Shown: positions 46,545 to 57,892 of the stretch, one piece after another | Position numbering within the stretch: position 1 is the first letter of the stretch | Layout: each line of letters starts with the position of its first letter | Assembly (NCBI GenBank): GCA_018606725.1 | Contig: JAGYID010000001.1 | Location: 52,803-116,802 of the forward strand | Reading direction: 5' to 3' | Source of the DNA: Acidobacteriota bacterium | Lineage (GTDB): Bacteria; Acidobacteriota; Polarisedimenticolia; Gp22-AA2 | DNA: 64,000 nucleotides | Notes under the pieces: generated by a model | The model's input: only the letters and a program-made list of their open reading frames with translations | Database searches by the model: none | Told to the model about the DNA's origin: nothing | Program-made: the position numbers and the translations under genes

Positions 46545-49500
46545 TCAGGCGGCCTGATCGGTCCGGCCGTAGTCTGCGGGGATGCCGAACTCCTTCATCC
46601 GGCGGTACAACTTCTGACGATTCCAGCCGATATAGCGCGCCGTCTTCGCCTTGTCCCCACCGAAGCGCCGCAGGGCCTCCTCGATCATCAGCTGCTCACC
46701 CGACTTGCGGGTCTCGCCATCGTGGCCCTCGCTTGGCCCGGCCCTCGGTGCGACGGCGCGGAGCCCTTCCGGAAGGTCCTGCGCCGTGATCACGTCGCCG
46801 GGCGACAGAACATGCGCCCGCTCGATGACGTTGGCGAGCTCGCGGACATTCCCGGGCCAGTCGTGCCCCAGCAAAGCTTCGGAGACGGCCGGCCCGAGGC
46901 GTTTCGGCGCGACGCCTTGGCCGGCGCGCTCGCGCAGGAAATGCTCGGCGAGCAGGGGTATGTCTTCGCGCCGGCTGCGCAAGGGTGGGACTTCAATCGA
47001 GACCACGTTCAATCGGTAGTAAAGATCCTGCCGGAATTTCCCCTGTTCCATCAGGGTCTTGATGTCACCGTTGGTCGCGGCGATCACCCGCACGTCCACC
47101 GGGCGGGGCGCGTTCTCGCCGAGGCGGCGCACTTCGCGCTCCTGCAGAACGCGCAGCAACTTCGACTGCAGCGCCAGGCTCGTGTTGGTGATCTCGTCCA
47201 GGAAAAGCGTGCCGCCGCGCGCCTCCTCGATGAGACCGACGCGGTCGCGATCGGCGCCGGTGAAGGCGCCGCGTGCGTACCCGAACAGCTCCGCCTCGAG
47301 GAGATTCTCGGGCAGCGCCCCGCAGTCGACCGCCACGAACTTCTTCTTCTTGCGCGGGCCGTTGTAATGGATGGCGCGCGCCACGAGCTCCTTGCCGGTG
47401 CCGCTCTCGCCCAGGACCAGGACGTTGCAGTCGCTGTCGAGCACGCCGGCGACGACTTCAGTGAGCTTCTTCATCGCCGGGCTTGCGCCGATCAAGTTCT
47501 CGAAGCGCGCCCGGCCCTCCGCCTCACGCCGCAAGCGCGTATTCTCGGTATTCATTTGTCCGAACAGCCGGGCGTTCTCGATCGCGATGGCCGCCTGGCT
47601 GGCGAACGACTCGACGAACGCCCTCTCCTTGTCGGTGAACAGCTGCGGCCCCTTGCGGGTGTCGAGGTAGATGATTCCGACCGTCTTGCCGCGATGGCGC
47701 ATCGGCACGGCGAGGATCGACTTGATCTCGTGCAGGATCAGGCTCTTGTTTGCCGCCAGCGAGGCATCCTGCCCGACATCGATAGTGAGCAGCGTCTGTC
47801 CCTTTGCGACCTGGTCGATCACCGAGCGGCTGAAGGACGTGATGCCGTCGAGGCTCTCCTTGTCCATGCCGCGGGCGATCGCAGGTCGCATCGCGCCCGC
47901 CGCCTCATCGGCGAGGAATACGATGCCGCGCTCGGCCCGGACGTTTTCGATCGACAGGTCCAGCAATTCGCGCAGCAACTCGTTCAGGTCCAGGATCGAC
48001 GTCAGCTTCTGCCCGATCGCGCTCAGCGCCCCGAGCATCCTGCGCGACACCCGCTCGCTCCGGCTGACCGTCGCCATGTCGTAGCGGACTTTCTTGGCCA
48101 CCTCCCCACGCAGCCGCTCGAACCTGTCCAGCACATCACGCACCTTCGCCTGCTCCAGGAACGGCCGGCGCCACTTCTCCTCATCGAGCCCCAGAGCCAT
48201 CTCGTGAATCGTCAGCGCCGCGAACCGATACTTCCGGTAGGCCGTCTCGTACTGAAGCTTCTGTTCGTACAGCCGCCCCAGCCAGTAATTCGCCTGCCAG
48301 AAGAGCGGTTTGTCAGCGTTCTTCCGGGCGATCTTCGCGGCTTCAGTGAGCGCCGCCTCCGCCTCGGCCGGCTTGTTGTCGCGCAACAGTCTTTCGCCCA
48401 GCAATACGAGCGCCCAGGTCAGATGCCAGCGCATGCCTTTATTGCGCGCGGTGGCAATGATGTTGCGCAAGGAGCAGCCGCCAGTTGGGGTGCTGGTTTC
48501 CAACAAGGGATTGGAAATCGCAATGCGTGCGATGTCTCGTAGAAGACCAACATCGAACGAGCATCCGGTGCTTTCGGCGTGAGGGAGTGCATAGTTCTCA
48601 TCATCCGTGTCTGATTGCTCACCTGCCTCATGTCTGGCCAGGGCCATTAGACATCGGAGCTCCAGCTTTAGGGCATAGCCTCCGGACGAGCTGATTTGTC
48701 TCTCTGCAAACCTACCAAACCGAGTCGCGGCTTGGACTCGCCCTATTGTAAGTAGAAGCAGCAACCAACTCGGTAGGACCGACCCTCTCACCTCAATTGA
48801 AGATAGCGCGGGGTTGCGTAATGAATGCTTTAGCAATTCGATCGCTTCTATGAAATTGCCCGTGTGCGCGAGAATGCGCGCCCCATTGCTTCTGGCTATT
48901 GCGGACAAACCTTGAATACCACTTCCTTCGGTTGCTGCAATTGCCGTGGCATATCCTCGGGCAGCATCCATCCATCGGCCCTGCCGCCGGGACACCTCAG
49001 CGAGATTATTGTGCGCGGCTCCCAGCGCAATCGATCTCCCTAGATGGGTCGAGCATTCGACGGCCTTTCGGAAGGCGTTGCGTGCTTTCCGGGAATGCCC
49101 GAGTTCCATGTGAAGCACACCAATATTTGTAAGCGGCCCACTCTCATCTACAGGCCTGCCATCGATGGGACCCAGTAAGTGGGAACGCCTGCTATAAAGG
49201 AGGGCACGGGAGTATTGTCCCTGTTGCCAATAGACGAAGGACAGTTCGGATAACGAGTCCCCAATATGACTCCTGCATCTGTGTCTCCTGGCCAAAGCGT
49301 TTGCCCGCACTAGCGTCCGCTTCGCGTGGGCATAGCGTTGCATCTTGGCGTGGACCTTGCCGCGCACAATCAATGCGCCAATGTGTATGAAGGGATGTGA
49401 ACTAACAGGCGCTGCCCCGTGCGCACGCCTCGCCCATGTCGCGGAGTCGCCCAGATGTCCCATTGCGTATAGGCATCGTGCGCGGGCATAGATGTACGCA

Positions 49501-57892: not shown

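Follow-up and report, generated by a model that had tools for sequence, protein, structure and literature searches.

A conserved three-activator cassette around a predicted sigma-54-dependent gene for a hypervariable secreted AIWG-repeat peptide in Acidobacteriota

PknK of Mycobacterium tuberculosis has an N-terminal Ser/Thr kinase followed by a STAND/MalT-like region. The protein is soluble or membrane-associated, and the PknK paper cites the STAND literature (PMC9045387). MalT is activated by inducer-dependent multimerisation (PMC4381067), and in NorR, a sigma-54 enhancer-binding protein (EBP), the GAF domain gates the AAA+ ATPase (PMC2941729). We analysed a 64,000-nucleotide stretch of an Acidobacteriota genome (GCA_018606725.1, contig JAGYID010000001.1; hereafter the window) that encodes two giant proteins with features of all three, regulator A from the upper giant gene and regulator B from the lower one, with a small gene for a predicted secreted peptide between them and a stand-alone sigma-54 activator, C, below B. 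The new result is a conserved three-activator cassette around a hypervariable, predicted sigma-54-dependent AIWG-repeat peptide. On balance, we favour the reading that the region is a conserved regulatory cassette in which A, B and the sensor-less C are arranged around one sigma-54-dependent promoter, that of the peptide gene, and operate by the mechanism proposed below. The parts of the cassette are:

52523..57892, minus strand: regulator A, 1789 aa; Hanks kinase, STAND NTPase (AAA_16), TPR, GAF, sigma-54 AAA+ (GAFTGA) and Fis helix-turn-helix (HTH)
52196..52522, minus strand: AT-rich spacer, 43% GC, ~320 nt, upstream of the sigma-54 promoter; holds the candidate enhancer (upstream activating sequence)
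52180..52195, minus strand: predicted sigma-54 promoter TGGCAT-N5-CTGCA (GG-N10-GC), upstream of the peptide gene
51799..52134, minus strand: secreted repeat-peptide gene, 111 aa; Sec signal peptide, pro-region, 8 copies of SAIWGGKD
51748..51769, minus strand: intrinsic terminator after the peptide gene, a GC-rich hairpin with a T-rich tail
51664..51693, minus strand: sigma-70-like promoter TTGACC-N18-TAACTT, 7 nt before the B start codon
46545..51656, minus strand: regulator B, 1703 aa; domain layout as in A
44940..46178, minus strand: regulator C, 412 aa; sigma-54 AAA+ and Fis HTH behind a short N-terminal region of ~95 aa

A and B share the GAF, sigma-54 AAA+ and Fis HTH layout of EBPs of the NifA/NorR/FhlA type but add ~1200 N-terminal residues (kinase, STAND nucleotide-binding oligomerisation domain (NOD) and TPR), and their predicted target is the peptide gene rather than nif, nor or hyc genes. 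Like MalT and other STAND transcription factors (LAL regulators, AfsR), they place a helical/TPR sensor after a P-loop NOD (AAA_16), whereas their output is a sigma-54 AAA+ motor and not a LuxR or SARP domain that recruits sigma-70 polymerase, and they hold a second oligomerising ATPase in the same chain. PknK resembles them as a soluble protein, tied to transcription control, in which a kinase precedes a STAND-type region, but it lacks a DNA-binding or sigma-54 module and exerts its effect through phosphorylation of other regulators. The FHA-domain EBPs of Myxococcus also link Hanks-type phosphosignalling to sigma-54 activators, but across separate proteins, whereas the architecture of A and B suggests that the two are coupled within one polypeptide.

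A and B flanked the small gene in at least 10 independent loci from Polarisedimenticolia/'gp22'; the order A–peptide–B, the promoter, the upstream motifs, the terminator and intact catalytic motifs were kept in up to 10 loci, and the peptide gene lay directly upstream of B in all cassette loci. The layouts of the loci compared with the window were:

L001 (contig of P0121, the one close relative of B, 63%): tail ending ...GKDGAVWGGGKDGAVWGGGK and stop, hairpin, B, C, opposite-strand gene
L005–L009 (contigs that carry the peptide homologues): end of an A-type gene with its Fis HTH, AT-rich spacer of ~320 nt, TGGCAT-N5-YTGCW, peptide, hairpin, B-type kinase N-terminus
L012 (gp22 metagenome-assembled genome (MAG) QHXZ01000006): full A, spacer, promoter, peptide, hairpin, start of B
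L017 (GCA_040961615) and L018: HD-GYP/GAF/GGDEF protein, A, peptide, full B, C, PAS/GAF sensor

As a negative control, we searched 80 loci around generic EBPs for an ORF with AIWG repeats and found none (0/80), and a metagenome scan with C returned generic EBPs alone, at 40–54% identity, with no cassette. That the orthologous loci are assembly copies of one population was excluded by their sequence divergence. These comparisons support well the view that A, B and C form one conserved module, with the sigma-54 promoter of the peptide gene as its predicted cis-target. A and B are adjacent and alike in architecture and strand, as two independent paralogous regulators with unrelated regulons would be after a tandem duplication, with the small ORF incidental. 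We consider this very improbable: it is contradicted by synteny across the cassette loci despite identities that fall to 52–59% for A and 42–63% for B, and A and B belong to different orthologous groups.

By BLASTP, A and B were 41% identical across the 520-aa GAF-AAA+-HTH part and 32% identical across the kinase, and the middle of the two proteins barely aligned. An earlier note on this DNA had described the activator halves as homologous with about half of their residues identical; the homology stands, and the figure was somewhat high. Within groups, AAA+-HTH identity was 72–83% for A, 66–85% for B and 79–94% for C, compared to 41–46% for A versus B, 45–48% for A versus C and 46–52% for B versus C. 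Neither A nor B is the closest database relative of the other, and in several genomes the A-type and B-type proteins fall into distinct groups of orthologues, in agreement with the suggestion of the same note that the duplication is old rather than recent. Because these groups are distinct in identity, the A/B split predates these lineages; on these figures, A and B are two old orthologous groups and not a local duplication. If anything, the output module of B appears slightly nearer to that of C than to that of A. Two HTH types were present, one found in A alone and one alike in B and C, with recognition-helix regions of LG[IV]SRATLFRKLKQ in A and RFIGW[NS]R[QP]KLYR[RK]M in B and C. As B and C share one HTH type, they probably use common DNA sites or form mixed rings, and C, which has no sensor and carries the HTH type of B, may be a partner or a substrate. 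C itself was 91% identical to its orthologue in L001 and 76–77% identical to those of L017/L018.

The earlier note had also proposed a sigma-54 promoter search starting at the repeat-peptide gene. We scanned the 64-kb window with at most 2 mismatches to TGGCAC-N5-TTGCA, keeping GG and GC, and found a well-placed promoter there, with TGGCAT-N5-CTGCA as the sole intergenic, correctly oriented match. This promoter was present in 9/9 loci covering the region (the window, L005–L009, L012, L017 and L018). A second sigma-54-like site at 52289 (TGGCAC...) was rejected for its missing −12 GC element. The 860-nt gap between A and B is AT-rich, and its spacer, upstream of the promoter, contains copies of the word AGTCTCA:

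52478..52484, no strand assigned: AGTCTCA copy 1, about −287 from the promoter
52402..52408, no strand assigned: AGTCTCA copy 2, about −211 from the promoter
52309..52315, no strand assigned: AGTCTCA copy 3, inverted, about −118 from the promoter

Across orthologous spacers, AGTCTCA/TGAGACT occurred in 20 copies and in 8/8 loci, clustered near −118, −210 and −287, and in 500 shuffles of the spacers no 7-mer exceeded 8 copies or 6 loci. Positions from −118 to −287 are typical distances for activator sites at sigma-54 promoters. In some loci, the copies form palindromes such as GTGAGTCTCAC, and a second recurrent word, GTATCA/TGATAC, was found in 6/8 spacers. No Rfam match for a structured RNA was found in the spacer. 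Two further features of the window spacer could be protein-binding sites, a 10-nt inverted repeat with a 3-nt spacer at 52451..52473 (TGTTTTGAGT/ACGCAAAACA) and a direct repeat whose copies, TTACGTCGTGTTTT and TTACAGCGTGTTTT, are 82 nt apart.

Downstream of the peptide gene, hairpins equivalent to the window terminator were present in all orthologous loci. The start of B is preceded by a sigma-70-like promoter of its own: a sequence matching TTGAC[CGT]-N17-19-TA[AC][CG]TT ends 7–8 nt before the B start codon in 7/8 loci (the window, L001, L005, L008, L012, L017 and L018), and no Shine-Dalgarno sequence was found before that codon. This spacing, together with the lack of a Shine-Dalgarno sequence, suggests that B is translated from a leaderless mRNA.

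The peptide reads MRNSGKVVAVLAVIIAMTLGQSLVQA (Sec-type signal peptide), APLVGASHSRSESLYARVLSMY (pro-region) and then SAIWGGKD eight times, the repeats being a 24-nt tandem array of 8.0 copies with 97% matches in the DNA. A Shine-Dalgarno sequence sits between the sigma-54 promoter and the ORF. An alternative 165-aa ORF at 51713..52210 was rejected as the repeat-peptide gene, as it reads the repeats in the wrong frame and has neither start context nor homologues. The peptide matched no Pfam, NCBIfam or PADLOC family. A search with the single sequence returned five homologues, each of which combines AIWG-type repeats with a signal peptide and a pro-region, and a profile of the six peptides searched against 1.84 billion representatives returned ~40 small proteins of 59–121 aa. 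Long proteins among the profile matches were set aside as unrelated WG-repeat proteins, since they matched at the repeat positions alone. Family members share a signal peptide ending in ...MAAP, a pro-region with ...HS..LF..FL.LL and one to nine [GSTA]A[IV]WG units, whose number and spacing vary. Across loci, the units took the forms SAIWGGKD (8 copies), GAVWGGGKD, GAIWGPN (4 copies), AGVWG (3 copies), GAIWGGKPGD (4 copies) and 15-residue units. The pattern WGG(G)KDxA[IV]WGG, which does detect the peptides of the window and L001, had no match in the genome and metagenome contig collections, in which the source genome and the L001 contig are not contained. An exact-sequence lookup of A (P0001) likewise returned no contig.

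Many family peptides, P0243, P0245, P0252, P0254, P0260, P0263, P0266, P0279, P0292, P0303, P0334 and P0374 among them, close with a C-x(2-5)-C tail, as in GAIWGCGSRC, GAIWGCKTC and SIWGHCTGVTC; the window peptide lacks this tail. With both cysteines directly behind the final AIWG unit, the tail points to a C-terminal loop closed by a disulfide. In single-unit forms, [ST][TP]DGAIWG...C...C stands at the extreme C-terminus, behind a Pro/Ser/Gly-rich linker.

Repeated short cores behind a conserved leader-like region are also a feature of multi-core precursors of ribosomally synthesised and post-translationally modified peptides (RiPPs). If the peptide were such a precursor, its AIWG units would undergo modification after translation and be cut out, with the cassette serving a natural-product locus as its regulatory arm. 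A partial match to TIGR03903 ('TOMM system kinase/cyclase fusion protein') points in this direction, NCBIfam containing kinase-STAND-TPR companions of peptide natural-product clusters, as does a radical SAM/SPASM gene beside a solitary family member (P0040). We nevertheless judge this explanation quite unlikely: no maturase, dedicated protease or transporter was found in the conserved cassette at any locus or within ~10 kb on either side, the precursor bears a classical Sec signal peptide and not a RiPP leader, and no Pfam or NCBIfam precursor family was matched. In L019 (15160..16206), P0040 adjoins glycosyltransferase genes as well as the radical SAM/SPASM gene, a different and possibly peptide-related context.

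The earlier note had read both giant proteins as fusions of a kinase, an NTPase, TPRs, a GAF domain, a sigma-54 activator and a Fis HTH, and Pfam bears this out with an identical domain set for the two. In A, the matches were Pkinase 13–257, AAA_16 290–460, three TPR_12, GAF 1273–1409, Sigma54_activat 1438–1604, AAA_lid_14 and HTH_8 1737–1773; in B, they were Pkinase 15–268, AAA_16 306–399, TPR_12/TPR_2, GAF 1225–1361, Sigma54_activat 1390–1557, AAA_lid_14 and HTH_8 1656–1692. Pkinase scored 150.5 bits in A and 152.6 bits in B (Pfam gathering cutoff 31.7), and AAA_16 scored 93.3 and 40.1 bits, respectively (cutoff 32.6). Sigma54_activat (PF00158) scored 241, 231 and 230 bits in B, A and C, and HTH_8 was found in all three activators (41.3, 39.0 and 35.7 bits). 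The GAFTGA loop, which contacts sigma-54, had the exact sequence in all three window activators and in every orthologue examined; the Walker A motif of the sigma-54 AAA+ domain was GESGTGKE or GDSGTGKE (G[ED]SGTGKE), and the Walker B motif was GTLFLDEI/V.

The kinase of A has canonical motifs (GxGxxG, VALK, alphaC Glu, HND, DFG and APE), with HND in place of HRD making it a non-RD kinase. The kinase of B retains the catalytic Lys, the alphaC Glu, HGD, Asn, D[LFV]G and APE, and its glycine-rich loop is degenerate in every B orthologue, with the middle Gly alone kept. The NOD Walker A motif GxxGxGK[ST] was present in all A-type and B-type proteins (GPSGIGKS in A of the window); the NOD Walker B motif was hhhLED in A-type proteins (LEA in window A) and hhhhD[DEN] in B-type proteins. 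When B 271–1200 was modelled with AlphaFold, the mean predicted local distance difference test score was 86.3 and the predicted template modelling (TM) score 0.77. The top Foldseek match of this model in the PDB was 6mfv, in which a STAND protein carries a TPR sensor (E 2e-11, 716 columns), and the model also matched MalT domain III (1hz4); the TM-scores of the Foldseek matches were low (0.24–0.32), because the domain arrangement differs. On this model, B 271–1200 is predicted to fold as a STAND protein, with a NOD, a helical arm/winged-helix region and a C-terminal repeat sensor. No convincing transmembrane segment was found in A or B. The region was also considered as an anti-phage defence system and rejected, as PADLOC gave domain-level matches alone, to a generic kinase and to the RtcR/PspF AAA+ module. 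Residues 1–95 of C contain no known domain; a Ser/Thr-rich segment in this region, GG[RQ]ARTLSE[RK].ES[VL]Q, is kept in four loci and is a conceivable target of the kinases of A or B.

The fusion architecture is common in databases and, for this reason, is not remarkable alone. The search with A retrieved over 100 proteins of ~1700 aa that carry identical Pfam domains, and B matched dozens more, from Acidobacteriota (Polarisedimenticolia, Thermoanaerobaculia and Acidobacteriia), Sorangium and other MAGs (e.g. Deltaproteobacteria and Candidatus Cryosericum bins). Orthologues of A at 52–59% identity over the full length came from Polarisedimenticolia/gp22 MAGs, and its nearest genomic relatives, at 51–58% identity, were Candidatus Polarisedimenticolia and 'Acidobacteria gp22' MAGs, so that the window very probably derives from this uncultured lineage. 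The relatives, which include proteins with Pfam TPR_MalT matches, are named in their sources 'sigma 54-interacting transcriptional regulator' or 'Nif-specific regulatory protein'. The best NCBIfam match of both proteins was indeed NifA (TIGR01817), at 402.5 bits for A and 356 bits for B, below the equivalog cutoff of 528.85, and neither reached any curated NCBIfam equivalog; the C-terminal ~500 residues of each align to the full-length NifA structure 9qq6 (E 1e-83). Full-text searches of the available papers returned no experimental study or paper on a kinase-sigma-54-activator fusion, and the architecture is not covered in the conflict-systems paper of Aravind. Sorangium genome and kinome papers reportedly mention kinase–sigma-54 fusions. 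The fusion is thus a further member of a family that is widespread in databases and uncharacterised. In Sorangium, which has the same full architecture (P0148, P0155, P0158 and P0162), the homologue examined, P0148, is solitary; both it and P0040 (40% identical to A) have neither a peptide gene nor the sigma-54 promoter, and no peptide cassette surrounds them.

Annotations of B are incomplete. In L017 and L018, gene callers reduced B to its C-terminal 650–710 aa, whereas tblastn found one open frame of ~1700 codons in each; full-length B of the source genome is missing from the protein collection, in which A and the peptide are present. As it is the low-GC half of B that the callers truncate, the architecture is under-counted in annotations. 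The full B frames are:

L017, 11746..16863: full B frame
L018, 16045..21156: full B frame
Window, 46545..51656: full B frame

The GC content at third codon positions (GC3) of B was ~0.6 over its first ~1100 codons and ~0.88 over the rest, compared to ~0.9 throughout A. The low-GC half belongs to an island of 4.2 kb at ~48350..52520, with 57–59% GC in a window of ~70% GC, that comprises exactly the N-terminal 1100 codons of B, the peptide gene and the spacer. The GC3 step was repeated in P0121, and regional GC was also lower across the N-terminal region of B in L017 and L018; the same pattern in four independent assemblies excludes an assembly artefact.

Divergence was concentrated in the same place. 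Between the window and L017, A was 61% identical in the kinase, 50% in the NOD, 47% in the TPR region, 79% in GAF and 77% in AAA+ (55% overall), whereas B was 37%, 27%, 29%, 76% and 75% identical, respectively (44% overall), and C was 77% identical overall. Compared to L001, B was 55% identical in the kinase, 40% in the NOD, 54% in the TPR region, 97% in GAF and 85% in AAA+, and C was 91% identical. At the nucleotide level, window and L005 were 88–94% identical across the promoter, signal peptide and pro-region, compared to 49–74% in the repeats and 44–75% in the first 2 kb of B. By these measures, the peptide repeats and the kinase-NOD-TPR half of B are one fast-evolving block between conserved flanks. 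Assemblies of orthologous MAGs often stop inside A or within ~350 nt beyond its downstream end (L010, L011 and L013–L015), which would fit population-level heterogeneity of the island.

Low GC3 and high divergence would also be expected if the N-terminal half of B were decaying under relaxed selection, leaving B as a NifA-like GAF-EBP with a pseudokinase. The glycine-rich loop that is degenerate in all B-type kinases, the 650–710 C-terminal residues that gene callers alone kept in L017 and L018 and the absence of the full-length product of the source genome from the protein collection are in line with such decay. We find it improbable, however, as the window, L001, L017 and L018 all preserve the ~1100 codons as an open frame at ~55% GC, the catalytic motifs of the kinase and the NOD Walker A listed above are all kept, and the NOD-TPR part was modelled confidently as a STAND protein.

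In the mechanism that we propose, A and B would be cytoplasmic one-component regulators. Binding of a ligand to the sensor of the STAND module (P-loop NOD plus TPR sensor) would shift it from a closed to an oligomerising state, as in MalT, and this oligomerisation, along with release from repression by the GAF domain (as in NifA/NorR), would drive assembly of the AAA+ ring, which would then remodel sigma-54 RNA polymerase at the peptide promoter. The Hanks kinases of A and B would contribute phosphorylation, either as a further input or as cross-talk between the three activators. In the most speculative step, the secreted peptide, processed to short AIWG units, would feed back on the hypervariable sensor of B to give a strain-specific autoinduction loop, analogous and not homologous to the RRNPP, ComQXPA or agr pherotype systems.

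In the Bacillus comQXP and staphylococcal agrBDC pherotype loci, a hypervariable signal and sensor stand beside a conserved output. The peptide-B stretch has the same arrangement, and a contiguous hypervariable signal and sensor beside a conserved output argues for peptide feedback on B, whose STAND-TPR sensor may detect the peptide or evolve in step with it. In com and agr, however, the receptors are histidine kinases of the membrane, and dedicated enzymes modify the peptides. As in the RRNPP(A) systems of Firmicutes (PlcR-PapR, Rap-Phr and NprR-NprX), a small gene for a Sec-exported pro-peptide, with its functional motif in the C-terminal part, lies beside the gene for a cytoplasmic TPR regulator. 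This is an analogy only: B is ~5 times larger, has a sigma-54 output, belongs to a diderm phylum and shows no indication of Opp import, and the listed Pfam/NCBIfam matches of A and B included generic TPR models only and no family of the Rap/NprR/PlcR/PrgX type.

The main competing explanation is that the peptide is an output only, bacteriocin-like, surface-active, adhesive or part of a matrix, with A, B and C answering other intracellular cues (a small GAF ligand or signals linked to cyclic di-GMP (c-di-GMP) from the adjacent HD-GYP/GGDEF protein) and with peptide variability arising from an arms race or from repeat slippage. A cassette without an importer or processing enzyme, cytoplasmic A and B, a conserved c-di-GMP enzyme beside A and, in many members, a terminal cysteine pair (C-x(2-5)-C) of the kind typical for stable extracellular peptides all fit this explanation, and repeats that are 97% identical in DNA could change copy number by slippage alone. 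We regard it as possible but on the unlikely side, for it accounts neither for the N-terminal 1100 residues of B diverging ~2 times faster than the same domains of A while the output of B is conserved, nor for a single contiguous low-GC island that spans peptide and sensor.

Several observations weigh against our cassette reading. A and B, having no transmembrane segment, cannot sense a periplasmic peptide directly, and the conserved cassette, which contains no importer, exporter or processing protease, does not account for how the peptide would return to a sensor in the cytoplasm of a diderm cell. Fast evolution and low GC3 in the N-terminal half of B could reflect relaxed constraint; synonymous sites are saturated, and the complete B sequences (n = 4) are too few for dN/dS or covariation. 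As distant members of the family stand alone, the link to the peptide holds for this subclade only, and the host organisms are uncultured.

In its fullest form, the feedback idea describes an unprecedented peptide-pheromone circuit in which a Sec-exported multi-copy AIWG peptide would be sensed through TPRs by a STAND protein whose oligomerisation assembles its own sigma-54 ring, giving autoinduction, with peptide and sensor diversifying together into strain-specific pherotypes and with the Hanks kinase, A and C as gates; we offer this version tentatively and think it rather doubtful as a whole. We know of no peptide quorum sensing in Acidobacteriota, a Gram-negative phylum. If the loop is real, peptide-based strain-specific cell-cell signalling would extend to this dominant and almost unstudied phylum of soil and sediment, and the cassette would reveal a way of connecting a STAND switch to a sigma-54 motor and what the ubiquitous kinase-STAND-TPR proteins of soil bacteria sense. 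The cassette also gives an architecture without known biology a first testable target, with a predicted sigma-54 promoter, candidate enhancer sites and a candidate ligand beside the sensor.

Gene boundaries in the window were revised by comparison with orthologues. Both giant minus-strand ORFs are intact, as the earlier note had claimed: each reads through without internal stops, and nothing splits either. The same note gave B as 1705 aa; the longest open frame is 46545..51662, and ATG 51656, the most likely start, gives 1703 aa. Its stand-alone EBP at 44940..46322 is an EBP by Pfam, and its most likely start is ATG 46178, giving 412 aa instead of 460, by comparison with the 91%-identical orthologue in L001. 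The GAF-GAF-PAS sensor that it placed immediately downstream was likewise recovered by Pfam, on the plus strand and convergent with the EBP. The genes flanking the cassette are:

43328..44929, plus strand: GAF-GAF-PAS protein (Pfam); convergent with C; position kept in other loci
58080..60605, minus strand: HD-GYP/GAF/GGDEF protein (Pfam); directly upstream of A; same neighbour in L017 and L018
60695..63685, plus strand: phosphodiesterase-TPR protein; divergent, upstream of A; position kept in L017 and L018

Given the HD-GYP/GAF/GGDEF and phosphodiesterase-TPR neighbours upstream of A, the conserved neighbourhood may extend to c-di-GMP signalling. The place of the GAF-GAF-PAS gene is taken by a PAS/GAF protein in L017 and L018 and by an uncharacterised opposite-strand ORF in L001.

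The surrounding DNA carries chromosomal housekeeping genes, including those for MutS, SMC, LolA, Ddl, HflX, SelB and a sigma-70 factor. A second stretch of lower GC content (61–64%), at 28000..34000, encodes a rhomboid protease, a TPR (MalT-like) protein, a sigma-70-family factor and a DUF507 protein. Plus-strand genes at 140..1652, at the start of the window, encode a partner-switching pair: an anti-sigma-type kinase (HATPase_c_2) with a STAS-domain protein. The gene for the selenocysteine elongation factor SelB lies at 33978..35963 on the plus strand, and its presence indicates that the organism probably makes selenoproteins.

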